Origin: Candidatus Pacearchaeota archaeon UBA73
Lineage (GTDB): Archaea; Nanobdellota; Nanobdellia; Pacearchaeales; GW2011-AR1
NCBI GenBank assembly: GCA_002496015.1
Contig: DAIF01000006.1
Span: 7,403 to 71,402, forward strand
DNA: 64,000 nt
Reading direction: 5' to 3'
Shown here piece after piece: positions 23,942 to 43,570 of the stretch. The translations under genes were made by a program, and so were the position numbers. Numbering within the stretch: the stretch's first letter is position 1; each line of letters opens with the position of its first letter. Under the pieces are notes generated by a model. It saw only the letters and a list, made by a program, of their open reading frames with translations, was not told the origin of the DNA and searched no databases.

Positions 23942-24691
23942 ATGCAGGAGAGACTTCTTAAAAAAATCATAACTGAATTCGCAGGAATCGAAGCTGAAAA
24001 GCTAGTTGACCTTCTCTACAAGAAACAGAATGTCAACGAGTTCCTCATCGCGAAAAAAATGAACCTTACCATAAATCAGACACGAAACATGCTCTACAAA
24101 CTCGCCGATTCCGGTCTTGTCCAATTTATCCGGAAAAAGGATAAGAAGAAAGGCGGATGGTATACTTACTTCTGGACCCTAAAAGTTAAGAGAGTCCTCC
24201 AGAAATACAAAGAGAAGCTCGAAGAAGAATCAAAGAAACTTGAAGAACAAGTTAACAAAAGACAGAACGAAAGATTCTATTACAGTCCGCTTGCAGATTT
24301 GGAATACACTGAAGAGGAAGCGATACTCAACGATTACATCTGCCCAGAGACCGGCGAGGTCCTACAACTCAAAGACAACACTCCCGAAATCGAGAAGATG
24401 AAAAATGGGATAAAAGACATTCAGAAACAGATAGTACTTATCGATGAAGATATTCTGGAAATAGAAAAGAAAGAGGAAAAGGTGAAAGAGAAAAGACTAC
24501 AGGAAGAAAAAAAGCAAAAGGATGAGGAGAGGCAAAAAAGAAAGGTGGAAAGGGAAAAACTCAAAGCAAAAGAATCAAAAAAGAAAGAACCAAAAAGAGA
24601 AGCAAAGAAAAAAACGCCTGCTAAAAAAGTTGCGGGAAAGAAATCCTCGTTTGTACAAAAGACGATAAAAAAATTCTCTAAGAAAAAATGA
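23942..24691 (+). CDS. tfe: transcription factor E alpha (TFE/TFIIE-alpha homologue) with Lys/Glu-rich tail
   Basis: N-terminal winged helix ending KKKGGWYTYFWTL, matching the TFE-alpha KDSGWFIYYW signature. No clear zinc ribbon. Confidence 0.65.
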   Translation: MQERLLKKIITEFAGIEAEKLVDLLYKKQNVNEFLIAKKMNLTINQTRNMLYKLADSGLVQFIRKKDKKKGGWYTYFWTLKVKRVLQKYKEKLEEESKKLEEQVNKRQNERFYYSPLADLEYTEEEAILNDYICPETGEVLQLKDNTPEIEKMKNGIKDIQKQIVLIDEDILEIEKKEEKVKEKRLQEEKKQKDEERQKRKVEREKLKAKESKKKEPKREAKKKTPAKKVAGKKSSFVQKTIKKFSKKK

Positions 24692-25392
24692 ACCGCGCAA
24701 GATTCCAAAAAAAGAAGAAAGGTCTTCTTTCGGTACTGAATTCCTTCTCAACAATAGCATGGCTAATCGCAATAACTATTTTGACATCCATCATCGGTCT
24801 TGTGATATTTTGGTTCTTTCCAGAGTATGCAGACTACATAGCCCTAAAACCATCAAATATTATGCAAGGAAAATATCTTTGGACAATCATTACACATATG
24901 TTCGTCCACGGTGGCATTGGTCACTTACTAATAAATATGTTCGTCCTCTTTTCACTTGGCAGTTTGTGCGAGAGAATAATTGGTAGAAAAAGATTCATTT
25001 GGTTCTATTTGCTTTCAGGAATTTTCGCGGGGCTGCTCTCGGTATTCCTTGCCGCTCAGTTTGGCGATACTGCATTGGGATCGAGGATTTTTGGCTCCCC
25101 GGACATTTCAATGGTCGGGGCTTCAGGTGCGATTTTTGCCATCGCTGGACTTTACGTAATGCTCCTCCCGCGATTAAAATTTATGATAATCTTCTTGCCA
25201 TTCTTCTCTCTGCCCGCCTACGTGATGGTGCCTCTAGTCCTTTTCGTCGTCTGGATAATCTCGGTAATCGGTGACTGGCCGATCGGCAATGTCGCTCACT
25301 TCGGCGGCTTCCTCGCAGGCATCATCTATGGTTTCTACCTTCGGACAAAATACAGTAGAAAAGTCGCAAAACTCCAAGGGATGTTCAGATAA
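24688..25392 (+). CDS. rhomboid-family intramembrane serine protease
   Basis: GASGAIFAIAG (the GxSG motif) and a catalytic His in AHFGGFLAGI. HMFVHGGIGHLLINM is also present. Six TM segments. Confidence 0.8.
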   Translation: MNRARFQKKKKGLLSVLNSFSTIAWLIAITILTSIIGLVIFWFFPEYADYIALKPSNIMQGKYLWTIITHMFVHGGIGHLLINMFVLFSLGSLCERIIGRKRFIWFYLLSGIFAGLLSVFLAAQFGDTALGSRIFGSPDISMVGASGAIFAIAGLYVMLLPRLKFMIIFLPFFSLPAYVMVPLVLFVVWIISVIGDWPIGNVAHFGGFLAGIIYGFYLRTKYSRKVAKLQGMFR

Positions 25393-25563: not shown

Positions 25564-27771
25564 TTACCCGCCCAATCCCCCGAGCGCAACACCTGCCAGA
25601 ACAGAGAGCACTGCGGTTGCCGCAAATGCGGTCAAAATATACAGGACAATTCCTATTCTCAAATTCCTTGCTAATTCATTTTTTTCTCTAAGGTTATCTC
25701 TCCCTGAATCTACAGTTACTAACGCGCCGGTCAAAATAAAGATTATCTCGATTATGTAAAGCCCGATGCTTAACTGGATATAATATGGCGGAATCATGTT
25801 TGGCAGACTGAATATTTCAAACAACCCTGCGAATCCTGTAGCTCCGAGGACATCACCACCAGTGTCTATCTGTAAGGTGTCAAGTTTGTTCAGGATGGCT
25901 GTGATCATAGCTGCAAGCCCTACAACGATTCCTGCCAAAAGAGGCGCCAGGAATGTCATGTTCGATTTCATATCGGATACTATTTCAGCAAGCAGGTCTC
26001 TTAGTCTTTCGTTTATCTTCTCAATGTTCTTGACATATTGTGAAATAGACATCAGAGATTGCGCTGCGATTTTCAAACCCTTCTTGGATGATTCTACTAA
26101 AATCCTTATTGAAGTCGCGATTAAAGCCGAAGGAAAGTAAATTATTGCGCCGCGCCTCGAATCAAAAACTGCCCCCTCAACACTCATCCCTCCCTGCTGA
26201 ATGTTCTGGCTCACATGCGAGAAGAACTCCGCGCTCTTCTGCCCTTGTGTCGAAGCCGCGACTCTCCCGAACGCAAGCTCTGCCGGCATCCCATCTCCTA
26301 GCCTATTTCCTAATTGAAACAGCGAATTCGCAAACTCCTTTTCTAATTGCTTCGTGCTATTTCTCGCTACAATAAGTTTCTTTGTCTTTTCTGAATACAC
26401 AAAATAAAACATCACTGCTAAACCTAGAGGAATAAACATACTTAGCAGTACCGCAAGCGTTCCAAACGGTCCCGTAGTTCTCCCTTCCTCAGTCTTAAAG
26501 TCAAATACTTTATCGTTCTCTCCCAAAAACCCAAGACTTAATTGAGCAAAGGTATAGTCGTTTTCAATTCCTAAAGAATTCGTTATGAAATCAATCTGCA
26601 AAATGAACGGCAGTGCGCCCAAAATGAAGAAAGGCAACGCGATAAGTATTCCCCAAATCCACGGCTTCTTTGAAGCATAGGTTCCATAATCTGGGTTCAG
26701 TTCAAGCGTGGACCCTTCACCGTAACCGCCAGGTCGCTTCAGCAAGACTTGCGACACCATATAAAACACGAAGAAAGGAATTATCACATTAAACAGCACA
26801 AATACGTGCGGCCAACGTATCATTCCCTGCAAAAGCGTCGAAGCCAGCGGCAGCATCGCAAGTCCCAGCGTCGGTAAAATAATTCCAAGCATATAAAGGT
26901 TAGTTAATGGTGATCGAATTTCTCGCGAATACTTCAGCATCTTCTCATAAACGCCGTCTAGGATAACTTCAAGCGCTCTCTCAAGGATTTCAATTCGTCG
27001 CGCCTCCGACGGTTCGACAAGACTGCTCTCGATCAGATGGAACGCCTCCACAAACTCCGGTGCGTAATCTCTCCAAATCAAAAGATAGTTCTCAAGCGAT
27101 TGTTTGACTGTGGAGAACTTGCCAATCTCGACGTCATAAAAAATCTTCTTAAAATCAAGAGCTAAGGGACCTTCGAGATGCTGGGAAGCGAATTGTATCG
27201 CTCTCTCAAGATTGGAAGTGTGTTTCATGTACACGACGACATAAAGTATCGCGGGCACCATCTGTGAAGACGCCTGCAGTTTCCATGTATTGGCTAACCT
27301 CTGAGGCAGAGTCGAAGTATAATAAAACACAAACAAGCTGGCGATCACTCCAAGAAAAAAGAGCAAGGCGACATCAGCAAAAGCCCTCGATGCCAAAAAA
27401 GCGTCTATGCTGGGAAAGCCAATCAGTACGTAGGCGACGATTAAAAGAAGCGTTCCAAAAAATACAAGAAACATCGACATCAGTGAGAGCGTCATCGCCT
27501 GTGACGGAGTCACATCAACGTGCGCTTCATCTAAATATCTCTGAAGTTTTATTCTGTCTTTCTCAGCGATTTTTATATTGACTATATTTCCTATTGACTG
27601 CGCCCATTTTTCATACGTACTGAGTTTAGGCTTCATGTCTCTCAAAAACTGTTCATACTCTCCGGAAACCCCTGCACTCCCCACAGACTTTTCTTCCATG
27701 TGAAGTTGCGACTCAAGCTTCTGGCTATATTTTTTCATAATGTCGCTCGCGGACGGTCTTTCAGATGCCAT
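25564..27771 (-). CDS. FlaJ/TadC-like polytopic membrane platform protein (two T2SS-F-like domains)
   Basis: Two repeats of a cytoplasmic helical domain followed by TM helices, e.g. LAFGRVAASTQGQKSAEFFSHVSQNIQQGGMSVEGAVFD. It diverges from the pilin gene array. Confidence 0.5.
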   Translation of the reverse strand: MASERPSASDIMKKYSQKLESQLHMEEKSVGSAGVSGEYEQFLRDMKPKLSTYEKWAQSIGNIVNIKIAEKDRIKLQRYLDEAHVDVTPSQAMTLSLMSMFLVFFGTLLLIVAYVLIGFPSIDAFLASRAFADVALLFFLGVIASLFVFYYTSTLPQRLANTWKLQASSQMVPAILYVVVYMKHTSNLERAIQFASQHLEGPLALDFKKIFYDVEIGKFSTVKQSLENYLLIWRDYAPEFVEAFHLIESSLVEPSEARRIEILERALEVILDGVYEKMLKYSREIRSPLTNLYMLGIILPTLGLAMLPLASTLLQGMIRWPHVFVLFNVIIPFFVFYMVSQVLLKRPGGYGEGSTLELNPDYGTYASKKPWIWGILIALPFFILGALPFILQIDFITNSLGIENDYTFAQLSLGFLGENDKVFDFKTEEGRTTGPFGTLAVLLSMFIPLGLAVMFYFVYSEKTKKLIVARNSTKQLEKEFANSLFQLGNRLGDGMPAELAFGRVAASTQGQKSAEFFSHVSQNIQQGGMSVEGAVFDSRRGAIIYFPSALIATSIRILVESSKKGLKIAAQSLMSISQYVKNIEKINERLRDLLAEIVSDMKSNMTFLAPLLAGIVVGLAAMITAILNKLDTLQIDTGGDVLGATGFAGLFEIFSLPNMIPPYYIQLSIGLYIIEIIFILTGALVTVDSGRDNLREKNELARNLRIGIVLYILTAFAATAVLSVLAGVALGGLGG

Positions 27772-27964
27772 CTCTTTTACCTACCGTCCAAAGACAAAAC
27801 TAAGTTATAAAGATTTACTTCGCAATGGCTTTGTTAAAAAAGTCTAAAAAACGCGTTGCGGGCAAAAATTTTGGCGTTACACGACATTGTTGAGGCCCAA
27901 ATCCTAAAATTCTGGTTTTAACATCTTTTCAAAAACTTTAATAACGTTCTTCACTAATTAAAAA

Positions 27965-28126
27965 TATGAAAAACAAAAAGGGTGATATCGAGTCCAGCAT
28001 ATTTGTATACGTTGTTGTCGCAATCCTTGTTCTTATTGCAGTCATATTAATCATAACCTATTTTAACAAAAGCGGCACTTCAGCCATGGAATTTATCAAG
28101 AACATCTTCAAATTCGGGAGTGGCTA
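27965..28126 (+). CDS. 53-aa pilin-like protein with class III signal peptide
   Basis: MKNKKG then a 22-residue hydrophobic stretch. First gene of the array and below the track size cut-off. Confidence 0.45.
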
Positions 28127-28957
28127 ATGCAAAATAGAACTGCCCAAATACAAACAAAATTTATCGCATGGCTCATTGCAATATTTGTTCTCATAATTTT
28201 AGTTATCACCGTATTCCTCTATCTTCAGAATAGCGCAGTTCTCCCTACGTTCAATAACACAAAACCTTTGGTTGAAGAATTGGGGATTATTCGTTACGAC
28301 ATAACAACCAGAAATGTAGAATATTTTACCGGCGAAGCATTTGTTGCACTTAAACCAAACGAAGATGTATTATTCAATCGCATTATAATTAATGAAAACA
28401 CCATAAAGATTGACTTTGAGAACTTTTGGTACGTAAGCGACAGAGAACAAAAAGAAATTCTCCTAAATTTCACTACCACAATGAAGATAGCAGAATGGTA
28501 TCAGGACAACCAGAGAGAACAAGCTTGCCTTCCCTTCACACTAAATGCAGTCGTAGTCCCGTATTACGCTCAAATAAATTCACCAAAGGGCCATGAAGTA
28601 TTATTAATTTTATTTAGCGGCGGAGATCCTGAAAAAATAAAAAGACTAGGGCTTTTTACAGTCACTCTAGAAAACAACCTCTGGATGAATAAAGTAGATT
28701 TTGATGAGTACTGTAATACTAAGCCGGAGGACGTTTGGAAGGACCTCTACCCTGAAAAGGACATGGTAATCTATAACGCAATAGTGCCGGAAGTGGTAGC
28801 TTGGAGAGACGCGGTCCTAAAAAAACCGCTTGCGGTAAGGTATGTAGATAGAGAAACAAACCAACGGGAAACAGTTTTCTTCTGCGTCACAAAGATGGAC
28901 TCTAAGTATCTGGTGATTGATTTCAGTAAACCAAAACAAGAGCATGACGTATGTTAA
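28127..28957 (+). CDS. N-terminally membrane-anchored protein in the pilin array
   Basis: N-terminal TM (FIAWLIAIFVLIILVITVFLYL). Its start abuts the stop of the upstream gene. Confidence 0.5.
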   Translation: MQNRTAQIQTKFIAWLIAIFVLIILVITVFLYLQNSAVLPTFNNTKPLVEELGIIRYDITTRNVEYFTGEAFVALKPNEDVLFNRIIINENTIKIDFENFWYVSDREQKEILLNFTTTMKIAEWYQDNQREQACLPFTLNAVVVPYYAQINSPKGHEVLLILFSGGDPEKIKRLGLFTVTLENNLWMNKVDFDEYCNTKPEDVWKDLYPEKDMVIYNAIVPEVVAWRDAVLKKPLAVRYVDRETNQRETVFFCVTKMDSKYLVIDFSKPKQEHDVC

Positions 28958-29076
28958 AAAATAATAAAGCCCAACTCGGAGAAAGCATCGTAAACTCTGC
29001 CCTTTGGTGGGCATTTATCGCAATACTGGTTGTCGTGCTCGGATTCATAATTTATTACCTGACGAAAATAACCTAA
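28951..29076 (+). CDS. 41-aa pilin-like mini-protein (MLKNNKAQ + TM)
   Basis: Overlaps the upstream stop by 7 nt. Hydrophobic stretch SIVNSALWWAFIAILVVVLGFIIYYL. Confidence 0.3.
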   Translation: MLKNNKAQLGESIVNSALWWAFIAILVVVLGFIIYYLTKIT

Positions 29077-29141
29077 TTTAACGTATGCCTAATTCCAGAC
29101 AGAGCCATAACTCTTATAAATTAGCCAAGATATATAATAAA

Positions 29142-30182
29142 ATGAAAAACAAAAGAGGTGAGCCTACTATGATGTTCTATATCGTTACAATCTCAGTTGC
29201 GATATTAGGATTTGTTATTTTACTTGCTTACCTCTTTACTTTAGATCCGCGCAGCCAGGAGGAAGATGTTCTTTGCAAACTCTCCGTTTTAACAAGGGCA
29301 ACTTCTCCCGATTTAGCCCAGTCATATATCCCTTTACGATGCTCGACAAAAAAAATTTGCTTAAGTGACAATTTTTTTGGCAGCGACTGTAAGGAATTTG
29401 CTGGAGAAAAAAACGTTATTTCAATTCGTCTTTCTGGAACAGAAGAGGATTTTGCTCGGACAATTGAAAAAACCTACACCGAAGCGATGTATGGTTGCTG
29501 GGATTCAATGGGCCAGGGAAAGCTTTCTCTGTTCACTAAAGGGGCGTCGGAAGTACTGGGTTTGGCAACAACGCAAGCAACCTGCGTAATCTGCTCCAGG
29601 ATCGCTATAGACATAAACGAACCTGAAAAAAAACAAAGGGTCTTGAATAAAGTTAATATAAATGAGTATATGCGAAGAACGCAAATACCTGGTCAGCAAT
29701 TTACTTTCTTGCAGGCATTTACAGATCGCTCAGTAAATTCATTCACCCCTATAAATAACGATGTACTTAATTCAGTATCAGAAATAGAAAAAGATTCGAA
29801 AGTAGAGTTTGGTCAAACAGATGAAATGGCTATTGTTTTCAGCCAAATCAAACCTCGGAGCTACACGGACACACTGAATAATCTCGGAACTGCAGGAGCC
29901 ACCGTCGCAGGAACTGCGTTCTTCACTCCGGGAATTGGTAGAATTGCAACACGGGCAATTTTTACCCTGCCAGGACTTGCAATTTCAGCAGCGGCAGCTG
30001 CAGGAGTCACCGCTTATTCTATGTCGACTGTTTACGAAGGCCGCGTCGCAGCTGCGGGTTATTGCGGAAAATTTACAACTGCCGATAGTGCAATGGATGA
30101 GGGATGCTCTGTCACCCAAATCGTCCCATATGACTTTAAATCGCTCAATCAAATATGTTATGCACTAGAGGGTAACTTTTAA
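29142..30182 (+). CDS. pilin-like protein (class III signal peptide, MKNKRG)
   Basis: Start chosen at the internal Met giving MKNKRGEPTMMFYIVTISVAILGFVILLAY. The track start at 29085 adds an unlikely N-terminal tail. Confidence 0.5.
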   Translation: MKNKRGEPTMMFYIVTISVAILGFVILLAYLFTLDPRSQEEDVLCKLSVLTRATSPDLAQSYIPLRCSTKKICLSDNFFGSDCKEFAGEKNVISIRLSGTEEDFARTIEKTYTEAMYGCWDSMGQGKLSLFTKGASEVLGLATTQATCVICSRIAIDINEPEKKQRVLNKVNINEYMRRTQIPGQQFTFLQAFTDRSVNSFTPINNDVLNSVSEIEKDSKVEFGQTDEMAIVFSQIKPRSYTDTLNNLGTAGATVAGTAFFTPGIGRIATRAIFTLPGLAISAAAAAGVTAYSMSTVYEGRVAAAGYCGKFTTADSAMDEGCSVTQIVPYDFKSLNQICYALEGNF

Positions 30183-30183
30183 A

Positions 30184-30825
30184 ATGAAAAACAAAAAAGC
30201 AAGTGTAATTCATGACAACCTTCTTGAAGTAATTCTCGCGGCATTGGGAATACTTTTAGTTGTAGGGGGAGGTCTCTGGCTTGCGTATAAAGTATGGACT
30301 ATCAACCAGGATCAAAGTGCAGAAAATGCGCAACAATTACTAAATGACATAGTAGCAAAAATTGAAGCAATCGAGGATGGGGACAACGCGACGATGCTTG
30401 CCCGTCGTATTAAGGGGGATTGGGGAATTATCGCGTACAAAAAAACAGATCCGATCCGCCCGGAAAAATGTTTCCTGCAAAATTGTATTTGTATTTTTCC
30501 ATTTGATTATTCTTGGTGGAAAGGACGCGGAAATGAATTTATCTTCAGCCCAGATTATCAAAAAATGGCGGAAAGCTGTCAGAAAGAAGGTTATGTCCGA
30601 TTATTCCAAGATAAAACAATAGAAGTCATAACCGTCGATGCCATTTCGGGCGTTCCGGATGGAATAGCACTTAGTTTACGGGGAGAAATAAAAACGAGGA
30701 CATATCCGCGTATTTATATCGGGGATAAAATGGGCGAAGGAGGGGTTTTACAACTGAACATAGATCGTAGGGAAAATTTAATTCAGGTTTGGTATGACAA
30801 AGCAACATATGATCCAACAAATTAA
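30184..30825 (+). CDS. pilin-like protein (MKNKKA signal)
   Basis: MKNKKASVIHDNLLEVILAALGILLVVGG. The start is 2 nt after the upstream stop. Confidence 0.55.
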   Translation: MKNKKASVIHDNLLEVILAALGILLVVGGGLWLAYKVWTINQDQSAENAQQLLNDIVAKIEAIEDGDNATMLARRIKGDWGIIAYKKTDPIRPEKCFLQNCICIFPFDYSWWKGRGNEFIFSPDYQKMAESCQKEGYVRLFQDKTIEVITVDAISGVPDGIALSLRGEIKTRTYPRIYIGDKMGEGGVLQLNIDRRENLIQVWYDKATYDPTN

Positions 30826-30826
30826 A

Positions 30827-31273
30827 ATGAATAAACGAGCAGTTCTTTCAAACACCCTCATTAGCACAGTAGTTGGGATAATGGCGATTGCAACAGTGGT
30901 TGCTGGGATATCAATTTTTCTGGTTTCCCAAAAAAATGCAGCAGCCGTCTGGGAAGATTATTACGCCAAAGAAATTTCTAGGGTTATTAATCTTGCCCGG
31001 CCCGGAGACGAAATTTCGCTCGATGTAACCAAGGCCGTCGGAATCGCAACAAAAAGTCAGGTAAGAAGTCAATCAGAAATATTCACATTTGACAATCCAA
31101 ACAATGAGGTTTGCGTGAAACTCGCTCCAAGCAGAAAAACCTGCTATCCGTTTTTCAACGATGTCGATGTTATAAATTATGAAACGCTCCCGGTAGGAGA
31201 CATAAAAGATGGAAAACCGGTTTCTTTGTTAAAATTTAAAGTTGCAGAAAGACCTGTTTTGGAGACAATATGA
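30827..31273 (+). CDS. pilin-like protein (MNKRA signal)
   Basis: MNKRAVLSNTLISTVVGIMAIATVVAGISIF. Start at the internal Met of track ORF 30794..31273. Confidence 0.5.
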   Translation: MNKRAVLSNTLISTVVGIMAIATVVAGISIFLVSQKNAAAVWEDYYAKEISRVINLARPGDEISLDVTKAVGIATKSQVRSQSEIFTFDNPNNEVCVKLAPSRKTCYPFFNDVDVINYETLPVGDIKDGKPVSLLKFKVAERPVLETI

Positions 31274-31746
31274 AAAATAAAAAAGCTCAAGTCGGAGAGC
31301 AAACAATGAACCTTTCACTCTTGCTCCAGTTAGGCTTTCTTGCTCTTGGAATCATCGCGGGTGTGTGGATTTTCTTTTACAACTCCGGATACGACTTTCG
31401 AAGTATTGACGCGGAACTGTTAAATTCGCGGCTTCAGAGCTGTTTCAGACAGAACAATCTTAATTTCTCGCTTCCTCGGGAGGAATTTTTCAAAGAGCTA
31501 TTCGAAACCTGTAAAATTGAACAGCAAGAGATTACAGATGACTGGGTAATCGCAATTTACATCGACGAACTGTCAGAGCCAAAATATAAACACGGAGACC
31601 CCCTATCTTGCCAGCTCCAAAGCAAAAATGAAGGTCTGCCACGCTGTGTCGAAAGCACTTTCCAGATAACGATAAACGAAAAAACCGCGACGATAACTCT
31701 CTACACTGGCACAAATCAGCGATCAATCGTCAGGAGGACAGTTTAA
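31270..31746 (+). CDS. pilin-like protein (MKNKKA signal)
   Basis: MKNKKAQVGEQTMNLSLLLQLGFLALGIIAGVWIF. ATGA overlap with the upstream gene. Confidence 0.55.
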   Translation: MKNKKAQVGEQTMNLSLLLQLGFLALGIIAGVWIFFYNSGYDFRSIDAELLNSRLQSCFRQNNLNFSLPREEFFKELFETCKIEQQEITDDWVIAIYIDELSEPKYKHGDPLSCQLQSKNEGLPRCVESTFQITINEKTATITLYTGTNQRSIVRRTV

Positions 31747-31748
31747 CA

Positions 31749-32396
31749 ATGAAAAATAAAAAAGCAGTTATGGGAAAAATCATCATGGGCATCCCGGTTT
31801 GGATTATTCTCTTAATTCTAATTTTGGTATATTTAACCCTAGCTGCTTGGGCGGCAGCATTGAAGGGCCCACAATTCGAGCACGCAGCCACAAGTATAAG
31901 CCAAACATTCATTCTGACTGAAATAATCGAATTTGAGGAAGAAAAAATGTTAATAATTGATGCCCTGATGTTGGCACAGCAAGGGCAGGAGAAATACGAA
32001 AGAGTTTACAACGATATTCAGAACAAGCCAATGTCTCCGGAACAACGTGAGCAGGCACAACAGGAGATTCAAAAATATGCAAATTATCCTTGGAAAATTA
32101 AAAATGCGATAAAAAATGCTCTCGAACAAGAAAATAAGAATAATCCTAAAAATATGTGCTTCATTGTTTTTCAAGGCCCGAAAGCATTGACCAAAACCAT
32201 TGAACTAAATGCAAATGAGAAAGATACATTTATCAAAATAGAAAACGGAATAGCTTCTATTCAAACTACCGGAGAATTAGATGTCCAATACTATGAAGAT
32301 AATAATTACCTTGCTCCCTTGACCCAGATTATCCTACCCGAAACTAATGAGCGCCTGTCTTTCAAATATTATTATGGAGAATGCATGCATGAATAA
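31749..32396 (+). CDS. pilin-like protein (MKNKKA signal)
   Basis: MKNKKAVMGKIIMGIPVWIILLILILVYL. Confidence 0.55.
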   Translation: MKNKKAVMGKIIMGIPVWIILLILILVYLTLAAWAAALKGPQFEHAATSISQTFILTEIIEFEEEKMLIIDALMLAQQGQEKYERVYNDIQNKPMSPEQREQAQQEIQKYANYPWKIKNAIKNALEQENKNNPKNMCFIVFQGPKALTKTIELNANEKDTFIKIENGIASIQTTGELDVQYYEDNNYLAPLTQIILPETNERLSFKYYYGECMHE

Positions 32397-32838
32397 AAAA
32401 GGTGATATTCCTTCGATAATTCTAATAATTGCAGCAGGAGCTTTAGTAATCACAGGAGCGGTAATATTTGCTTTATTTAATGGAGAACTAGCTGCCCGCT
32501 CCGGAGATTATGCCTCGCTCATGAATCAACTTGAGTTCAATTACCAATATGCCCTTAAAAATTTTGAGATGATTATCGAACAAGCTGGAATACAATGCAG
32601 CTCTTGCGATGAAAATCAATTCAAAGAAAAAATAATCGAAATAGCGGCCATTAGAGAATCACAATTCCGTTATGAAAATCTGGGCAACGCATATGGCAAA
32701 ATTAGAAGCGGAGAGTTTACAGTCCAACAAAAAGAGAATGAACTACAAGTAATAATTGAAGACCTCTTCGTAAAAGCAGAATCAGGCAATAACCTCGCAA
32801 TAAGAAGTTATTCTTTTGCACGCGAAGTAGATATCTGA
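32389..32838 (+). CDS. pilin-like protein (MNKKG signal)
   Basis: Internal Met of track ORF 32347 gives MNKKGDIPSIILIIAAGALVITGAVIFAL. Overlaps the upstream stop. Confidence 0.5.
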   Translation: MNKKGDIPSIILIIAAGALVITGAVIFALFNGELAARSGDYASLMNQLEFNYQYALKNFEMIIEQAGIQCSSCDENQFKEKIIEIAAIRESQFRYENLGNAYGKIRSGEFTVQQKENELQVIIEDLFVKAESGNNLAIRSYSFAREVDI

Positions 32839-32999
32839 TCCACATAGATTCTGTCTGGAATTTATTGAGTTACCTTTGGTTAAGTGAGCACGTCCCGTGA
32901 AAGGCATCCATTATTGTTTCGCGCGCAGAGCGTCAGGACGAGATTGGAGGCAAAGCGAAATGAAGAAACATTTATAAACAAAAATCATTTATCTAATGC

Positions 33000-33623
33000 A
33001 TGAAAAATAAGGTGAACAAAAAAGGTCAAGACCTTTCTATTGGCACATTAATATTAATAGTCCTTGGAATTGTCGTTCTCGTCCTTCTAGTCTTGGGCTT
33101 CTCGATGGGTTGGGAAAACCTTTGGGAAAAAATCAACATCTTCGGAGGCGGAAGCTCAATCGGCACAGTTGCCTCTGCTTGCGAACTCGCTGCTCAGCAG
33201 GACAACAAATACGGCTACTGCCAGGAATTCAAAAGAGTAAAAGTCGGTCAGACCAATGAATACGTTAATTGCCAAGATACAAGACTGCAATCAAGCATAG
33301 ACACTAGACTGAACTGCGATCTGAACGAAGTCAATAATGCAATCCAAATGCTCTGTGATGGATTCACCAGCGACAGCGACAGAATAAATATAAGAATAAA
33401 TGGAAATACATGCAAAGAAAGATTTGACACTATCTACGATGCAACAGGAAAGAGAATACCGACAGATCCGGCAGCAGAACAACAACTTACAGCATATACA
33501 ACTGAATGTATGAGCAAACAAGGAACTGTGGATGATACGATCACAGGCAATTGCCCAGCAGGAAAGACATTAGTCCAAGTAGACGCGACACGACCACAAG
33601 GAAAAGTCTGCTGCAGAGCTTAA
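33000..33623 (+). CDS. cysteine-rich pilin-like protein (MKNKVNKKGQ signal)
   Basis: KKGQ|DLSIGTLILIVLGIVVLVLL class-III-like N-terminus and 14 Cys in the exported domain. Confidence 0.55.
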   Translation: MKNKVNKKGQDLSIGTLILIVLGIVVLVLLVLGFSMGWENLWEKINIFGGGSSIGTVASACELAAQQDNKYGYCQEFKRVKVGQTNEYVNCQDTRLQSSIDTRLNCDLNEVNNAIQMLCDGFTSDSDRINIRINGNTCKERFDTIYDATGKRIPTDPAAEQQLTAYTTECMSKQGTVDDTITGNCPAGKTLVQVDATRPQGKVCCRA

Positions 33624-33632
33624 ATTCTCATC

Positions 33633-33959
33633 ATGAACAAAAAAGCATTTGAACTCGCGATTTCAACACTGATTATAATCGTTTTGGGAATCCTCGTTCT
33701 CATTGCCATCGTCTACGCTCTGACTGGCGGTTTCAAAAATTTCACAAGCGCTACAGACCCTTTCATAGACAGCACTCAGGCAACCGCAGTCACACAGAAC
33801 TGTAAGAACGCCTGCGAACAAAACTTAACAATCATCTATTGCTGTTCTGAGTATGAAATTGACGGCAGACCTGTTAATTGTGCCGATTCAAGATTAGGTA
33901 TTGGATGCTCACTAAACTGTGCGGGATTTGAATGCGGCTCCCCGGAAGACGGTCAATAA
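33633..33959 (+). CDS. cysteine-rich pilin-like protein (MNKKA signal)
   Basis: MNKKAFELAISTLIIIVLGILVLIAIV and 10 Cys in the C-terminal 60 aa. Confidence 0.55.
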   Translation: MNKKAFELAISTLIIIVLGILVLIAIVYALTGGFKNFTSATDPFIDSTQATAVTQNCKNACEQNLTIIYCCSEYEIDGRPVNCADSRLGIGCSLNCAGFECGSPEDGQ

Positions 33960-33971
33960 CTTTAGATTAAA

Positions 33972-34109
33972 ATGTCAAGCCAAGATTATTCCTCAAAAAG
34001 AAAGACCAAGAACGACAAAAGAGCGAAAGCTCGTTACAAAATTTACAAAAAGGGAGGCTCCCAGCGCTCGACAAACATCAAGCTGACAAATGAAAAACAA
34101 AGTTGTTAA
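33972..34109 (+). CDS. 45-aa highly basic small ORF (Lys/Arg-rich)
   Basis: MSSQDYSSKRKTKNDKRAKARYKIYKKGGSQRSTNIKLTNEKQSC, sitting in a 420-bp convergent intergenic region. Confidence 0.2.
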   Translation: MSSQDYSSKRKTKNDKRAKARYKIYKKGGSQRSTNIKLTNEKQSC

Positions 34110-34381
34110 AGTCCGATTTACGTTCGACGTTAATAGGAAGAAACCTTTAATAGAATAGAGAAAATAACACAAAAGCTAATCTGGTCACAGGAGATAATTT
34201 ATTATTATGAAATATTCTCTCGTGGGATGTACAAAATTGGATGCAGATGGATCCACAAGTCCAGTACACAAAAGAAATTTTGCTCCATGAAATACTCTAT
34301 TTTTAGGTTTACAAATATTTTTGAAATATTCTGAAAAATAATCTAACTTACAAAAATATAATACATCAAAACAGCCAATTC

Positions 34382-35914
34382 TCAAAACAAAATATTATTT
34401 ATATTAATAAAAGAAAATAGATTCGTTCTTACTTTACTTTTTTTGATATTCTTAGATAAGGCGACAGTAACTATAACAATCAGAATAACTAAGAGAATAA
34501 TCCCCCACAAAGAAGATTTATCTTTAGATATCTTCCTGTTTTCATCAAAAATTATTTCATCATCAGGCAACGTTTCTTTCTCTCTTTGAGAAAATTTTTG
34601 AATAAAAATTCTTGCTCTGCCATTTTCAATTCCATCATATCTCAATGAAATATCGTTTTCTCCGTCTCTGTTTAAATCAAATATGACAATTTCATTCTTG
34701 GTTAAATTTAAAACAACTGGTTCTGATTGAATTGTAACTCTCGCCGTTGTTGAATTAAAAAAATTCAATGTCAAAACGTGCCCGTCAAATCTTAATTTAT
34801 CCGTGACAAGCAAAAGTTCTGAATATCCTCCTTCTAAATCAGATTCGCTGACATTATATTCAATCGGAATCCTCCCGCCCCCTCCGTAACCACCTCCAGA
34901 ACTAGAACTGCCGCAGTTACTTGTTCTCATTGTCTGAGATACAGAAAAAATATTTCCTGCATTATCTTCTGCACTTACACTAATATCGTAATCACTCCCA
35001 CAATTCAATCCTGAGACTACGTTTCCAGAGACATCGCCAGAAGAACTTAAGAGAACACAACTTTTAATCCCGCTCAACTCATCAGCACAATTAAAACTAA
35101 CAGTAATAGAATCTCTCGCTGAACTTGAATGAGAAAGAGAAATTTCTGGCATAGTGTTATCGATTGTAAATGTAATAGATACAGAATCATTTATTTGACC
35201 TAATGTATCATTCGCGATTACAGAAAGATTATACTCTCCGTCTGAAAGAGTAGTCGTGTCAAAGATTGCATTATAAAGATTGTCATTTTTTGTCGCCTCT
35301 AAAATTTCTAATTGTTCCGAAGAGTTTGAAATATTAAATGCAACACTATCGACTCCCGAAGCATCAATTATCATTGCACTTAGGACAATCTCTCCTGAAA
35401 CATCTGCAAAAGCAACAGGGGAAATAATTTCTACTTGCGGTGCTGTATTGTCTATTATAATATTTTTTATTCCAAAAGGGAGAGGAGAATGTGTAATATT
35501 CCCTCCGTTTATTTCAATTACATTGATGGAAAAAGTTATTTCACCAGCGCTTTCATCGAGATTAATTTTTATTGTAAGATTTTGCTCTTCTTCAATATCC
35601 CAATTTAATGCAATAAAACCGCCAAAAGTAGCATTGGGAAAATATGGAAAATTTGAATTTGTTACAACATTTCCTGATGAAGAAGTTAAAGTAATATTAA
35701 TTAAGTCATCTTCAATTAAATCTCCTGTAAAGTTTATTGTGATTCTGCGGAGTATTCCGGTCTCAGTTGTATTCGTTATATTAAATTTAAGAACATCAAA
35801 GCTGTCTCCTGCCTTGACAAACTCAGGAGCAACGTCCCAAAATTCCGCACTCACAGTTCCTATAAATAAAAGCAGGAAAACCGCGCTAAAAAAAATATTC
35901 CGATTCCTCACCAT
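34382..35914 (-). CDS. large cell-surface protein with Ig-like/CARDB-type beta domains and C-terminal TM anchor
   Basis: N-terminal signal, repeated beta-rich Thr/Ser/Asn-rich modules, a Gly-rich stretch, and a C-terminal hydrophobic helix plus basic tail (LWGIILLVILIVIVTVALSKNIKKSK). Confidence 0.55.
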   Translation of the reverse strand: MVRNRNIFFSAVFLLLFIGTVSAEFWDVAPEFVKAGDSFDVLKFNITNTTETGILRRITINFTGDLIEDDLINITLTSSSGNVVTNSNFPYFPNATFGGFIALNWDIEEEQNLTIKINLDESAGEITFSINVIEINGGNITHSPLPFGIKNIIIDNTAPQVEIISPVAFADVSGEIVLSAMIIDASGVDSVAFNISNSSEQLEILEATKNDNLYNAIFDTTTLSDGEYNLSVIANDTLGQINDSVSITFTIDNTMPEISLSHSSSARDSITVSFNCADELSGIKSCVLLSSSGDVSGNVVSGLNCGSDYDISVSAEDNAGNIFSVSQTMRTSNCGSSSSGGGYGGGGRIPIEYNVSESDLEGGYSELLLVTDKLRFDGHVLTLNFFNSTTARVTIQSEPVVLNLTKNEIVIFDLNRDGENDISLRYDGIENGRARIFIQKFSQREKETLPDDEIIFDENRKISKDKSSLWGIILLVILIVIVTVALSKNIKKSKVRTNLFSFININNILF

Positions 35915-36036
35915 TTACCTCTTGAACTCATCATTATTACATAAAATTTAATATTTTAGGCATTTCATTTTTATTATTTTTTCAAGTATTCAATCTTTTT
36001 AAATGTTACGCTTATGTAACTCTTTGCTTTAAATTA

Positions 36037-37505: not shown

Positions 37506-38357
37506 ATGCAAGAATATTACTTTCTATTTGCTCTCGCTATAATCTACGCAATTTTTGCGACGTTCCAGGACCTACGCTCCAGAGAAGTAGCTAACTGGCT
37601 GAACTTCTCGCTCATTGCGTTCGCACTTGCATATCGCGCATTCTACTCCTCTTATTCAAACAATCCTTGGTTTTTTCTTTACGGGCTGCTGGCATTTGGT
37701 GTGATGTATCTTCTCGCATACGGATTTTACTATACCAAAGTATTCGCGGGTGGCGATGCAAAGCTCCTTATGGGCTTAGGAATAATTCTGCCGTATCAAT
37801 CTCCTATCCACCTCCTGACATTTCCGCTCCTCTTTGTCCTGACTCTCTTCGTTTCCGGCGCGATATGGAGTTTGTTTTACAGCATAATTATCGTAACAAA
37901 AAACAAGAAAAAATTCCTAAATGAATTCAGAAGAAGATATATTAGTTGGAGACCGGTAATAATACTCTCGCTCATAGCTTTAATTCTTTCGATTCTTGCG
38001 GGATTATTCTATCATCCGTTCGGCTATTTTGTGTCCATCCTCTCCCTAATCCCCCTTTTGTTTGTCTATACAAAATCCCTTGAGCAAAGCATGATTATTG
38101 TCCTCCCTCCAAGCAAGCTTACTGAAGGAGACTGGCTCGAAAAAGAAATAAAACTTCCCGGAGGAAAAACAATACGCAAGACTGTACACGGATTATCCTA
38201 CAAAGACATTCAGCTCCTTAAGAAATATCATCGTTCTGCTTTAATCAAAGAAGGAATTCCTTTTGTGCCAGCGTTTTTGATAACTGTCCTGCTCACGGTA
38301 CTCGTCTTGGCAACTTCACTACTTCCGTTTCCGCATTTTTTTTCACTGTTTTTTTAA
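37506..38357 (+). CDS. prepilin/preflagellin peptidase (A24 family, PibD/FlaK-like)
   Basis: First catalytic Asp in FQDLRSREV and second in the canonical FAGGDAKLLMGLG motif. Polytopic membrane protein. Confidence 0.65.
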   Translation: MQEYYFLFALAIIYAIFATFQDLRSREVANWLNFSLIAFALAYRAFYSSYSNNPWFFLYGLLAFGVMYLLAYGFYYTKVFAGGDAKLLMGLGIILPYQSPIHLLTFPLLFVLTLFVSGAIWSLFYSIIIVTKNKKKFLNEFRRRYISWRPVIILSLIALILSILAGLFYHPFGYFVSILSLIPLLFVYTKSLEQSMIIVLPPSKLTEGDWLEKEIKLPGGKTIRKTVHGLSYKDIQLLKKYHRSALIKEGIPFVPAFLITVLLTVLVLATSLLPFPHFFSLFF

Positions 38358-39582: not shown

Positions 39583-40041
39583 ATGAAAAAGGGGCAAGCG
39601 TGGGGATTTGATTTAGTTGTTGGAACAATCATTTTTTCAGTGGGTATCCTCTCGTTTTACATCTATACGACGAATATTTCGGGAACTGACGGGGTGCTAC
39701 AAAACCTGCAGAAGAACGGCGAGCTTGTGGCAGATAGTCTTATGTCTGAGGGAAGTCCTGTTGATTGGAATGAGACAAATGTTGTTAGAATAGGGTTGCT
39801 GTCGGAGAATAGGATTAATCAGAGTAAGCTGAATTCTTTCATGATCTTGGCGAACGCAGATTACGGTCGCACAAGGTCTCTGTTTCGGATAAACACAGAG
39901 TATTTTATTTTTTTTGATGCTGACCAAGAGAAGGGTATTGGGATAGAACCGAGCGAGGCGACTAATTTGATTAAGATAACGAGGGTGGTCGTGTACAACC
40001 AGAGCGTCACGACCTTGAATGTTTATTCATGGATAAAGTAA
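39583..40041 (+). CDS. pilin-like protein with class III signal peptide (KKGQ|AWGFDLVVG)
   Basis: MKKGQAWGFDLVVGTIIFSVGILSFYIY. First gene of a 3-gene overlapping operon. Confidence 0.5.
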   Translation: MKKGQAWGFDLVVGTIIFSVGILSFYIYTTNISGTDGVLQNLQKNGELVADSLMSEGSPVDWNETNVVRIGLLSENRINQSKLNSFMILANADYGRTRSLFRINTEYFIFFDADQEKGIGIEPSEATNLIKITRVVVYNQSVTTLNVYSWIK

Positions 40042-42671
40042 AGGATATTTATTTTGGTAAGAAAGGTTCTTTCTTTAGTACCGACGCTTTGATTGCGGTG
40101 CTGATAATTCTTTTTGTCGTTGTCGCCGTCCGCCCCTTGTTTCAGGAGACTCTTCCTGAATCTGATATTCATTCTGATATTTTGGTCGCGCTGTCGACAT
40201 TGAAAGTCTCGGAGATGAAGGACGCCAGCGTTCAAGCGATGATTGCAGACGGGACAATACGAGAACCCAACAAAACTCTACTTGAGCAGATTGGAGAGTT
40301 TTATGTTTTTGATTATCCGGATGTTTCGAGAGCGAGGAATATTGCCGCTGTGGCTTTGAGGGATGTTAATACTACTAATAATTTTGGTATCTGGTTTGGG
40401 GATACTTTGATTTTTTCAAACAATGTTACTTCGGTTGAGGCGGCGAGGGACGTTGACGTTGCCAGACAGATTATTTCAGGAATCGAAGCGGGACAAAACA
40501 TTTCCGGATTTGCTGCGCGTGCGTTTTTGTCGAGTGATTGGACCACGTTTTATTCATATCTTGGAGGGTATGTGGGTGATGGAAATATTTCTATGAGCAT
40601 TTATTATGAAGGAAATATTTCTGATGAGGCGGTTTTAGAAATTGCTATAAATGATGATTTTGATTTTTATATCAACGGCGTTTTGTATGACAATTTCGCT
40701 AAGTCGACCGACGATTCTTACGGGCCGGAGAGATATGTTCTTGAAAATATGTCTTCGTATTTCTCGGAGGGAGAAAATCTAGTCGAGTTTAAGGGGGAAA
40801 ATTTGTTCATAGCGGGAGGTTTTCTGAAAATAAATTATCGCGGTAGTTCTCAGTTTGGCGGCAAGAACAAGACGTATAATTTTCCCGGAATCGACGGATT
40901 GATAAATGTTTATGATGGTTTTTTTGTTCCGGGCAACCTGACGCGGATGGAAGTATATTTACATATGGACAGCAACTACACGACTTTTCTGAATATAGGA
41001 AATGTGACGGTTTATCGAAGAGCAACTTCCGGGGAGGAAGCTGTTTTTCTTGATGATGCGCTGCTTTCAAGCATGATAGATTACAGCTCACTGGAAGGAA
41101 GGACGACTCCGTTGAGGCTTGGACTTGAAAACGCTTCTTATCTAGGAATTGCGCAGCTGATTGATGTTTTTTCTGTGACGGATTTGTCTGGGAGCATGAC
41201 GGAGTGCGCGATTTATTCCCAGCCATATATCTGTAGTTATAGCTGCCTGCTTGGGGGAGCTAAGTCATGCCAGATTGCGAGTCCTTCTTTGTGCACAGGT
41301 AATCCATGCGGAGGAACCTGTTTGTTGGCTTACGATCACGCGTTGAGTTGCGAACGGGACAGGATGGCTCTGGCAAAGGAATCGAATAATGTTTTTATTG
41401 ATATAATCCTAAATTATAGCGGTAATAGAGTCGGCTTGGTTGGATATGCAGGGAGCGCGCCGGATTCACAGTTTCATGTTCTTTCAAACAATTCCGCATC
41501 TCTGAAGTCAAGAGTGAGCAGTTGGAGCGCGAGCGGTTCGACCTGTATTTGCTGCGGGATAAATAAAGGGGTTTCGAATTTGGTTTCTAGTTCCACTTCA
41601 GATAAATTTCGTTCTTTGGTGGTGATGAGCGATGGGGAAGCGAATGTTCAATGCGCTCAGCAAGGGACGGGGAATGCTGCGCAAGACGCGATAAAAGCTG
41701 CGCAAGACGCGTGCCTGAATTATGGGATTGTTACTCACACTATTGGATTTGGCGAGGCAGGAGAGTCAACGATGATTGAAATAGCCAACAAAGGTTGCAA
41801 TGGAACATATTATTATGCTGATGCTGAAGAACTGGCAGAGGTTTATCAGCAGATAGCGAATTCTATTTTGACGGAATATGTTGAGCAGACTTTGTATGCC
41901 GGAGGAGGAACATTGAACACAAAACTTTTTTCTGATTCTTACATTTCTTTTGAATACACTCCTTTAGAAATGCCTTACGGTCTGACGATTACTGCAGAGA
42001 AAAATTTTGATAATGTTTTCGGCGGCAGTTTCTATATTCCTCCGGGAGCGAGGCATGTGAAGACGGACATTATTTCTTACTCTGGTCCGCTTTGGACTTC
42101 TGTTGTTTCGATTAATGGAGAGAATGTGCTTGATTTGGACGGTTTTGGAGTGCCTTATATAGGTCTCGGGGATCCGTATCAGGTGACGGCGGCTGGTTCG
42201 ACTATTGTTCAGGGCATGAACGTTGTGAATGTGACACTTGGGGTCTCAAGCAGCAATCGGACTTCTGCGTCTTCTTCGGATAATAAAATCATTTACACTA
42301 TCGTGCAGAATGCGAGTTCTTTTTCAGATGTTTTACCGGTGGCTTCAGGGTGTTTATGGGATATTCAACTTGAAGATGGTGCTGTGCTGAGTGGGGTCCG
42401 GATACCGAATAGTTTTGTCGGAACGCAGAGTTGTCTTTTTGATGATACGACTTACAATGCAATGGCCGGTTCAAATGACTACGGGCAGATATCAAGCGTG
42501 AATGATGCATATCAAGTTGCGACCCTAAATCTGTTGAGGACATTGGATTTGAACGATAATGGGAGAGTGGATGTTTTGTTCACTCAACAGGATTTGCAGA
42601 TTACTTTAAGCGAGATAGAAGGAATTCCTTTCACCTATTATACGGAGGTGCAGTCAAGAACATGGCATTGA
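40029..42671 (+). CDS. 880-aa pilin-like surface protein with von Willebrand factor A (vWA) domain
   Basis: Class-III-like N-terminus KKG|SFFSTDALIAVLIILFVVVAV and MIDAS motif DLSGSM at about residue 380. Many N-x-S/T sequons. Confidence 0.6.
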   Translation: MDKVKDIYFGKKGSFFSTDALIAVLIILFVVVAVRPLFQETLPESDIHSDILVALSTLKVSEMKDASVQAMIADGTIREPNKTLLEQIGEFYVFDYPDVSRARNIAAVALRDVNTTNNFGIWFGDTLIFSNNVTSVEAARDVDVARQIISGIEAGQNISGFAARAFLSSDWTTFYSYLGGYVGDGNISMSIYYEGNISDEAVLEIAINDDFDFYINGVLYDNFAKSTDDSYGPERYVLENMSSYFSEGENLVEFKGENLFIAGGFLKINYRGSSQFGGKNKTYNFPGIDGLINVYDGFFVPGNLTRMEVYLHMDSNYTTFLNIGNVTVYRRATSGEEAVFLDDALLSSMIDYSSLEGRTTPLRLGLENASYLGIAQLIDVFSVTDLSGSMTECAIYSQPYICSYSCLLGGAKSCQIASPSLCTGNPCGGTCLLAYDHALSCERDRMALAKESNNVFIDIILNYSGNRVGLVGYAGSAPDSQFHVLSNNSASLKSRVSSWSASGSTCICCGINKGVSNLVSSSTSDKFRSLVVMSDGEANVQCAQQGTGNAAQDAIKAAQDACLNYGIVTHTIGFGEAGESTMIEIANKGCNGTYYYADAEELAEVYQQIANSILTEYVEQTLYAGGGTLNTKLFSDSYISFEYTPLEMPYGLTITAEKNFDNVFGGSFYIPPGARHVKTDIISYSGPLWTSVVSINGENVLDLDGFGVPYIGLGDPYQVTAAGSTIVQGMNVVNVTLGVSSSNRTSASSSDNKIIYTIVQNASSFSDVLPVASGCLWDIQLEDGAVLSGVRIPNSFVGTQSCLFDDTTYNAMAGSNDYGQISSVNDAYQVATLNLLRTLDLNDNGRVDVLFTQQDLQITLSEIEGIPFTYYTEVQSRTWH

Positions 42672-43570
42672 ATAGACGGGGAATATTTTTTATGATGATG
42701 GCTTTTGTAATCATATCTCTCTTTGTTTTGTCAGTCATGTTTTATTCAGAGTTTTCATCTAGGGCGAGCGTGCAGAAAAGAGTCGAGACCTTGAGTGATT
42801 TTGTTTCGGCTTCTGAAGCAGATTTGTCCCGCCAGTTGTTTATAACTGGGTATAGAGCGATATTTTACATGGAAAAAGAGATTGTGGACAGCGGAAGTTA
42901 TTTGGGGAAGGATGTTAATTCTGTATTGGAGGAGATTTTTTTTAATGGGACGATAAATGGCAGAGAGGAACCTCTGTTGCAGCAGATAACTTTTGATAGG
43001 ATGAATCGGCTTTTGTCTGAGCGCGCGGCAGTCATAAGTGCGGATGCTTATTTTTCAAATCCCCGGATAGCTGTTAGTCAGGATGATCCGTGGAATGTAA
43101 AGTTTACTTTCACGTCTGAACTTTTTGTTGCGGACAGGAATAATCTTGCTTTGTGGAATAAGACTCAGGTGACTGAGGTTCTGATTTCAATATCTAATTT
43201 TACGGACCCGGTTTATTTTGTTGAGACGGCAGGGAATATTGCGCCGCCGGTTTTTGTCAGGACGCCTTTTGAAGTCTTTGATTCTTCTAGCCTTAATCAG
43301 CATATTCAAGGCAAATATTATCGGGCGCACGATGATGCGCCGAGTTTTCTTGACAGGTTAGAAGGTAATCTTTTTGCCGGCTCTTCGCAGGGAATTGAAT
43401 CTTTGGTTTATGTGGAAGATATTCCGATGGAGTATAGGGGGGATGGTTCAATCGTGGATTATATGTATTTTTCCGGAGCAGTTTCGCCGCATTGTCACAT
43501 TTCCGGGATGCAGTCGTGGGTGAGACTTGATGAAGCGCACTGGAATTATTATGGAGTTAGCTGCGGTTAG
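42662..43570 (+). CDS. pilin-like protein (RRG|IFFMMMAFVIISLFVL)
   Basis: N-terminal basic-Gly-hydrophobic signal. Overlaps the vWA gene stop. Confidence 0.5.
   Translation: MALNRRGIFFMMMAFVIISLFVLSVMFYSEFSSRASVQKRVETLSDFVSASEADLSRQLFITGYRAIFYMEKEIVDSGSYLGKDVNSVLEEIFFNGTINGREEPLLQQITFDRMNRLLSERAAVISADAYFSNPRIAVSQDDPWNVKFTFTSELFVADRNNLALWNKTQVTEVLISISNFTDPVYFVETAGNIAPPVFVRTPFEVFDSSSLNQHIQGKYYRAHDDAPSFLDRLEGNLFAGSSQGIESLVYVEDIPMEYRGDGSIVDYMYFSGAVSPHCHISGMQSWVRLDEAHWNYYGVSCG

Follow-up and report, generated by a model that had tools for sequence, protein, structure and literature searches.

What is assembled from eleven consecutive genes whose products all begin with a short basic leader and a hydrophobic helix? 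The question is raised by 64,000 nucleotides of contig DAIF01000006.1 (positions 7,403 to 71,402, forward strand) in assembly GCA_002496015.1 of Candidatus Pacearchaeota archaeon UBA73, hereafter called the window. On its plus strand, eleven consecutive open reading frames (ORFs) occupy positions 27966-33959, divergent from the gene of a large membrane protein that we discuss below as an assembly platform. In our view these genes probably supply the substrates of a type IV filament (TFF) system that is specific to one lineage, the DPANN archaea of the Pacearchaeota/Nanoarchaeota type. The encoded proteins comprise 53, 276, 41, 346, 213, 148, 158, 215, 149, 207 and 108 amino acids (aa), and an independent gene caller predicted all eleven ORFs on the same contig of the public assembly. 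An earlier note on this DNA had reported eleven same-strand ORFs with abutting or overlapping stop and start codons. The ORFs are present, with the first start at 27966 instead of 27965. The junction spacings of -1, -7, +65, +1, +1, -4, +2, -8, +161 and +9 nt agree with the description at eight of ten junctions, but two true intergenic gaps precede gene 4 (65 nt) and gene 10 (161 nt). The window also encodes archaeal markers such as TFE/TFIIE-alpha and an ATP-dependent DNA ligase, among others, and close relatives of its proteins are found in metagenome-assembled genomes labelled Pacearchaeota, Woesearchaeota or Nanoarchaeota, which places the source among the DPANN archaea.

The N-termini provide the first part of the answer. 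All eleven proteins carry a basic leader of 5-9 residues followed by an uncharged stretch that begins within the first ten mature residues and measures 20-34 residues, not the 18-25 originally given for the hydrophobic segment. Archaeal prepilins are recognized by a processing site ahead of the H-domain, G, A or S at position -1 and a charged residue at -2, and they do not need Glu at +5 (PMC4371748). Judged in this way, the class III signal-peptide architecture recognized in the earlier note is borne out: the site precedes the H-domain in all eleven proteins, position -1 is G in four and A in seven, and position -2 is K or R in all except gene 2, which has T. Other details of the first description need correction. 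Ten of the eleven leaders do end in K or R followed by G or A, yet the near-identical M(K)NK(K/R)(A/G) leader attributed to ten proteins is found only as looser MKNKK variants in genes 3 and 10, and an acidic residue within +1 to +5 occurs in eight proteins rather than ten. Q at +1, present in four of the eleven, marks substrates of the peptidase EppA such as the Epd pilins with their KGQV and KGQI sites (PMC4371748).

The leader pattern is not a product of chance. A strict scan of all six frames of the 64 kb for M..[KR][KR][GA] within 14 residues, followed by a hydrophobic window, recovered nine array genes out of eleven. It also picked up four members of a second plus-strand cluster and one false positive, with no match on the minus strand and none in spurious ORFs. 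The false positive is a rhomboid protease gene adjoining the platform gene (24688-25392, plus strand; N-terminus MNRARFQKKKKG↓LLSV..., where ↓ denotes the position of the apparent processing site, as in all sequences below). Across 442 orthologues the consensus reads M-N-K-[K/R]-[G/A]↓[Q/E/D] with a modal leader length of 5 and N at -4 in 56% of the sequences. Since the rule used for choosing gene starts relied on the leader motif, we added a motif-independent test, recording the residue after the last basic residue ahead of the hydrophobic stretch in 432 orthologues from other genomes. This residue was G in 305 cases and A in another 84 (389/432, 90%), compared with a background of 13.5%, the share of G plus A in the rest of the same proteins. 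We predict that an A24 peptidase would cleave the leaders.

Such a peptidase and a putative platform are encoded nearby. The divergent gene (25564-27771, minus strand) specifies a polytopic membrane protein of 735 aa that had been called FlaJ/TadC-like from its sequence. Neither Pfam nor NCBIfam matched the window copy itself and a profile of the family found nothing among PDB sequences, but 6 of 21 orthologues (identity at least 64%) match PF00482 T2SSF with a best E of 2.8e-7. We accept the earlier assignment in the sense of a predicted, diverged T2SSF-type platform (FlaJ/TadC/PilC). More than 3400 relatives exist, of which the 120 listed are 62-90% identical, some of them labelled TadB by the Joint Genome Institute (JGI), and a relative is encoded in 567 species-representative genomes. 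The prepilin peptidase, a FlaK/PibD-type A24 enzyme of 283 aa, lies 3.5 kb downstream of the array (37506-38357, plus strand). It matches PF01478 above the cut-off (E 3.4e-12) as well as NCBIfam FlaK_Arch (E 7.5e-13), and both catalytic Asp motifs (FQDLRSRE, AGGDAKLL) are intact in an alignment to FlaK 3S0X. Among 54 related loci, 35 close the array with a peptidase gene in the same orientation. A T2SSE ATPase of 757 aa, most similar among PDB entries to archaeal GspE2, CpaF and FlaI, is encoded in 72 out of 85 related loci and in 58 of the 85 lies convergent to the platform gene within 3 kb. Because it is so regularly part of these loci, the ATPase of the UBA73 genome is probably encoded outside the window, elsewhere in the genome.

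Is the array itself kept as a unit? For the comparison we used 80 loci out of the 567-genome platform search and three more loci, and counted adjacency in the 57 loci whose sequence extends 7.5 kb or more upstream of the platform gene. In about 45 of these 57, the platform is directly flanked by a divergent array, whose 9-14 ORFs encode proteins with N-terminal helices. Iterated profile searches seeded with the eleven window proteins sorted the ORFs into eleven groups, whose order is nearly always 1-2-3-4-5-6-7-8-9-10 in about 45 species-level genomes of the Pacearchaeota/Nanoarchaeota type; group 11 occurs in about a quarter of the arrays only. Even of the 12 loci without an adjacent array, 11 carry groups 4, 6, 7 and 10 in this order elsewhere in the locus. 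Because the peptidase ends the array and the ATPase is present in the proportions given above, the window is a slightly rearranged copy of a standard locus, in which ten or eleven substrate genes are accompanied by genes for an ATPase, a platform and a peptidase.

The earlier note had regarded the array genes as paralogues with exported domains unrelated in size. Profile-profile comparison after removal of the N-terminal helix shows the exported parts to be mutually unrelated and does not support recent paralogy: only groups 10 and 11 are related (hhalign, 92% probability, E 7.5e-7). Because the helix-free profiles are otherwise unrelated, a recent paralogue expansion does not account for the array. 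The profiles indicate ten old, separately conserved families, or eleven if gene 11 is counted, that have been kept together in fixed order. Mean pairwise identity within the substrate groups is 14-37%, and orthologues of gene 4 are 28-46% identical to it, whereas the platform retains 56-84% identity over the same 80 species-level genomes. Sequence change has thus been much more rapid in the substrates than in the machinery that handles them.

Structure models made with AlphaFold2 (AF2) cover genes 4 and 10. Both contain the long N-terminal helices that were to be expected of pilin-like proteins (residues 9-33 and 36-54 in gene 4, 14-44 in gene 10), although this is a weak test because any hydrophobic N-terminus gets predicted as helical. 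The outcome named in the earlier note as a refutation, models lacking such a helix, thus did not occur for these two. Their modelled heads have no match in the PDB and are unlike any solved pilin or archaellin. The label pilin-like, which the earlier note had applied to the whole proteins, therefore rests on the N-terminus and the gene context and does not extend to the globular parts of these two. The array and its neighbours also gave no match to Arch_flagellin or Fla accessory families, and archaellin, FlaH, FlaF and FlaG, the components by which an archaellum is recognized, were not found there. The locus enlarges by ten families the set of predicted class III substrates that escape present profile libraries, and for two of the ten the predicted folds lack a solved relative.

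Which of the proteins could form the body of a filament? Gene 10 (33000-33623, plus strand; 207 aa, MKNKVNKKG↓QDLSIGTLILIVLGIVVLVLL) stands out. Across 65 sequences of its family the segment from the predicted cleavage site to about +45 (QDLSIGTLILIVLGIVVLVLLILGFS.GW.NLWEKINIFGGGSS) is invariant or nearly so, whereas the Cys-rich C-terminus varies in length and sequence and keeps its cysteines alone. Mean pairwise identity of the mature N-terminus is highest in groups 10 and 11 (0.35 and 0.37), compared with 0.14-0.27 in the other groups. In Haloferax volcanii, a near-identical H-domain distinguishes the six major pilins (PilA) from the rest of the 47 predicted substrates (PMC4371748). Because of this nearly invariant N-terminus and variable C-terminus, gene 10, together with its paralogue gene 11 (33633-33959, plus strand; 108 aa, MNKKA↓FELAISTLIIIVLGILVLI), is the most likely candidate for the major filament subunit. 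Ten long relatives of gene 10 had no Pfam or NCBIfam family match. The cysteine-rich character noticed at first in the last two genes is confirmed by 10 and 8 Cys in genes 10 and 11, but it does not set them apart since gene 4 also has 10. Genes 1 and 3 encode conserved helix-only proteins of about 47 and 34 aa after predicted processing. Gene 1 is an alternative candidate for the major subunit because its size resembles the head-less Epd and Flp major pilins (10.64898/2026.04.22.720090).

In the mechanism that we propose, all eleven proteins would enter the membrane via their N-terminal hydrophobic helix, and the A24 peptidase would remove the leader of 5-9 residues after [K/R][G/A]. The T2SSF-like platform of 735 aa would then lift the freed helices from the membrane and bundle them into a helical fibre, with extraction and assembly driven by the T2SSE ATPase that most relatives encode beside the platform and that would here act from outside the window. 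Gene 10, with gene 11, would form the shaft; the tiny products of genes 1 and 3 would be helix-only subunits of Flp/Epd pilin size; and genes 2 and 4-9 would supply minor subunits with distinct heads that prime assembly or cap or decorate the fibre. Outside the cell the heads would be largely disulfide-stabilised. Polymerisation and the division into major and minor subunits are what we infer from the locus as a whole, while a role in adhesion or host contact, as part of a cell-cell contact machinery, might be conjectured at most.

Several observations weigh against a filament system. Neither the eleven array proteins, with pilin and archaellin families included in the search, nor 131 orthologues of groups 2 and 5-9 have a Pfam or NCBIfam match, and profile searches of the array families against PDB sequences gave nothing. 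The leader of gene 2 lacks the charged residue at -2, although its orthologues have canonical leaders, e.g. MNKKA↓ and MNNKG↓. Three unrelated genes, encoding a low-GC Ig-domain surface protein, a small TrmB-type regulator and an AI-2E transporter, separate the array from the peptidase in the window. Finally, tblastn did not find the T2SSE ATPase in the 64-kb window, nor was it found in the 10 kb past its right edge.

The same machinery might also make a different product. Processed class III substrates could form a short pseudopilus, like that of type II secretion, or an envelope-embedded complex of the bindosome kind, to which each head would contribute in stoichiometric amount and which would serve for secretion, uptake or bridging of the envelope. 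Ten unrelated families, present once per locus and in fixed order, look like a defined multi-subunit complex rather than a homopolymer, the modelled heads have no pilin-like fold, and class III signal peptides also serve non-pilus systems such as the Sulfolobus bindosome (PMC4371748; 10.64898/2026.04.22.720090). We nevertheless consider such a complex unlikely: scans of the members found no substrate-binding or enzyme domain, and the conserved core and variable head of gene 10 are typical of a polymerising major pilin. Ultrasmall groundwater cells are moreover known to bear pili-like appendages, though these have not been assigned to a Pacearchaeota-type lineage (PMC7906910).

A more specific version, in which the TFF machinery would assemble the ten families into an envelope-spanning contact or transfer structure of fixed stoichiometry, specific to Pacearchaeota-type DPANN and built of folds without a solved relative, appears distinctly unlikely to us. 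If it were true, the structure could be what lets such minimal cells fasten to a host and tap its resources.

Pacearchaeota-type DPANN are abundant, uncultured and thought to be host-dependent; for the source organism itself we assume a host-attached life. In groundwater, imaging has shown pili-like appendages that join ultrasmall cells to hosts, unlinked to the locus described here (PMC7906910). The locus ranks among the most conserved multi-gene surface systems of the lineage, with the platform in 567 species genomes and a fixed array order, and it offers gene 10 as a candidate fibre subunit and the variable heads of gene 2 and of the gene 10 C-terminus as candidates for host recognition.

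We give little credence to a third possibility, a real fibre that serves mainly in DNA uptake, like ComG of Firmicutes, rather than in host attachment. The small pilin-like genes with overlapping stops and starts, accompanied by peptidase, platform and ATPase, do resemble comG operons. Competence genes and type IV pilin-like genes also commonly co-occur in ultrasmall groundwater genomes (PMC9938205). However, no large multi-pass ComEC-like ORF is evident among the window ORFs of at least 110 aa, most though not all of which were checked against Pfam, and ten distinct heads, including large Cys-rich ones, exceed the known needs of such a pilus. That the proteins are plain signal anchors obeying the positive-inside rule, i.e. 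unprocessed single-pass membrane proteins unrelated to the adjoining platform, is barely credible, since the absence of pilin-family matches and of a pilin fold in the two modelled heads is countered by four observations that the positive-inside rule leaves unexplained: the 90% share of G or A next to the last basic residue among the 432 orthologues, the leader length fixed at 5 with N at -4 in 56%, the prepilin peptidase at the array end in 35 of 54 loci and the near-universal linkage to a putative T2SSF platform.

The remaining members of the putative filament system are described here in their order, all on the plus strand. Gene 1 (27966-28127; 53 aa, MKNKKG↓DIESS; group 1) consists of the leader, one helix and a short amphipathic tail without a globular domain, which gives it an Flp/Epd-like size. 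It heads nearly all arrays, with the consensus M.KRG↓..WD.L.PWIIA...GK...KN..RFG. Gene 2 (28127-28957; 276 aa, MQNRTA↓QIQTK; group 2) carries the atypical leader with T at -2 and belongs to the most length-variable group (mature length 190-532 aa). Gene 3 (28951-29076; 41 aa, MLKNNKA↓QLGES; group 3) is a leader with a single helix; its family is kept in 36-44 arrays with the consensus KKG↓..G....LWIIF. In gene 4 (29142-30182; 346 aa, MKNKRG↓EPT; group 4), the N-terminal helix is followed by an alpha/beta domain, and its 10 Cys are conserved. Orthologues of gene 5 (30184-30825; 213 aa, MKNKKA↓SVIHD; group 5) have a median of 7 Cys. Gene 6 (30827-31273; 148 aa, MNKRA↓VLSNT; group 6) contains a conserved VWEDYYAKEISRVIN motif; a weak match of its N-terminus to DUF7262 (E 7.8e-4) was not reproduced in 22 orthologues. 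Genes 7 (31270-31746; 158 aa, MKNKKA↓QVGEQ; group 7), 8 (31749-32396; 215 aa, MKNKKA↓VMGKI; group 8) and 9 (32389-32838; 149 aa, MNKKG↓DIPSI; group 9) complete the series up to the gap of 161 nt before gene 10 (32839-32999).

Genes 1, 4 and 10 are the only array genes with a non-coding gap upstream, and each of these gaps contains a TATA-like element: TTAATAAC at 27938-27945, TTATAAAT at 29114-29121 and TTTATAAA at 32971-32978, with centres 24.5, 24.5 and 25.5 nt upstream of the respective ATG. The divergent intergenic region between platform and gene 1 (27772-27965), read directly from the sequence, also holds TTTATAAC on the opposite strand, centred 36.5 nt upstream of the platform ATG. Several internal array genes have GGAG-like motifs 5-17 nt upstream instead. 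We infer that the TATA-like elements may function as promoters, including an internal one before gene 10, and their spacing suggests leaderless transcripts for genes 1, 4 and 10. Because the octamers lie about 25 nt before these three ATGs and internal genes carry GGAG-like motifs, the array would be divided into three leaderless transcription units, namely genes 1-3, 4-9 and 10-11.

A second set of genes with class III-like leaders is found just downstream of the peptidase, at 39583-43570, 44273-44719 and 47851-48612 on the plus strand. The first of these regions comprises three overlapping genes for proteins of 152 aa (MKKG↓QAWG), 880 aa (...FGKKG↓SFFS) and 302 aa (MALNRRG↓IFF). The protein of 880 aa contains a von Willebrand A domain and could be a modular adhesin-pilin. 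Of the separate genes, one encodes 148 aa with the leader MKTKG↓QAAMEFLMTYGWAIL and the other 253 aa (MKKRG↓LSNVIATVLII) with a sub-threshold match to TIGR02537, the archaellin/pilin N-terminal domain (E 0.0045). Counted by their leaders, substrates of the prepilin peptidase may make up about 16 of the roughly 65 genes of the window. Among the second set lies a MinD/ParA-type ATPase gene (46359-47117, minus strand); FleN/MinD ATPases have been listed as components of clade 1 (Epd-type) archaeal pilus loci (PMC4858521).

The gene that interrupts the adjacency of array and peptidase usual in relatives (34382-35914, minus strand) encodes a protein of 510 aa in which bacterial Ig-like domains (Big_7, Big_13) are flanked by a signal sequence and a membrane anchor at the C-terminus. 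GC content falls to its lowest value in the window here (34001-36000; 32.5% vs about 41%), and the product may be an acquired surface or S-layer-like protein. Two further genes are recorded for completeness. A HepT-like (HEPN) ribonuclease gene (45098-45436, plus strand) overlaps the start of a gene for a tRNA-binding-domain protein (45426-45764), with no obvious MNT antitoxin partner identified, and a gene resembling the large subunit of NiFe-hydrogenase (15924-17210, plus strand; PF00374, E 9e-28) belongs to a DPANN genome whose metabolism is presumed to be minimal.

How does the array compare with known systems? In the type IV pili, type II secretion systems and ComG competence pili of bacteria, several different pilin-like genes lie side by side, often with overlapping stops and starts, and their products have only the processed N-terminal helix in common. 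The minor pilins or pseudopilins of these systems are thought to prime or cap the fibre. Bacterial pilins have a conserved Glu at +5, are N-methylated and adopt known alpha-beta pilin folds. The array differs from bacterial minor pilin sets in that only part of its proteins have an acidic residue within +1 to +5 and in that its modelled heads match no solved pilin. With Tad/Flp pili it has in common the very small helix-only pilins (genes 1 and 3), and the ATPase of related loci matches CpaF, but the Flp-type motif G↓xxxxEY is absent and groups 1 and 3 have consensus sequences of their own.

Archaeal TFF systems that combine a single major pilin with several minor ones are well documented, and multi-pilin operons are known from the Epd cluster of Methanococcus, which has 11 genes including five pilins, EpdA-E (PMC4371748; 10.64898/2026.04.22.720090). 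The array resembles the Epd system of Methanococcus maripaludis (System 1) in uniting several class III proteins with a dedicated A24 peptidase, an ATPase and a platform (here a predicted one) in one large cluster, in its processing sites of the K-G↓Q type (KGQV, KGQL and KGQI in EpdB-E) and in the head-less nature of the Epd major pilin, which recurs in genes 1 and 3 (PMC4371748; 10.64898/2026.04.22.720090). It differs from Epd in having ten or eleven contiguous pilin-like genes instead of five pilins, in the restriction of Q at +1 to four of eleven proteins and in lacking a match to Class_IIIsignal/DUF361 or any other pilin family. System 1 also has two platform genes, whereas the window and its relatives have the single platform of 735 aa (10.64898/2026.04.22.720090). 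According to a survey of 2026, some DPANN carry loci of System 1 (Epd-type) or subsystem 4A, or loci of an Aap-like kind (10.64898/2026.04.22.720090). Pilins evolve fast and escape annotation, and the cognate pilins of some nanoarchaeal ATPases were not found in a previous survey (PMC4858521).

A close precedent is the DPANN "dark matter" islands of Makarova, Wolf and Koonin (2019, Fig. 2A), who predict that unannotated signal-peptide proteins beside TadC and an ATPase are pilins (PMC6393860). As described there, the islands likewise consist of runs of signal-peptide proteins beside a TadC-like gene and an ATPase, and were read as pilins from their context (PMC6393860); the array and the islands are very probably the same kind of locus. 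The earlier note, which had called so many pilin-like genes in one operon unusual, overstated the case, given the Epd operons and the pilin islands that had already been predicted in 2019 (PMC6393860). That account gives a general prediction for example loci (PMC6393860); what is new here are the ten or eleven families, their order in about 45 genomes, the leader statistics, the candidate major subunit and the two structure models. Overall, the array fits the general archaeal TFF kind anticipated by the literature, without the two-platform mark of System 1 or a known pilin-family match. Though unsurprising in principle, it deserves interest because it is so strictly conserved, comprises ten families that had gone unannotated and offers a clear candidate subunit.

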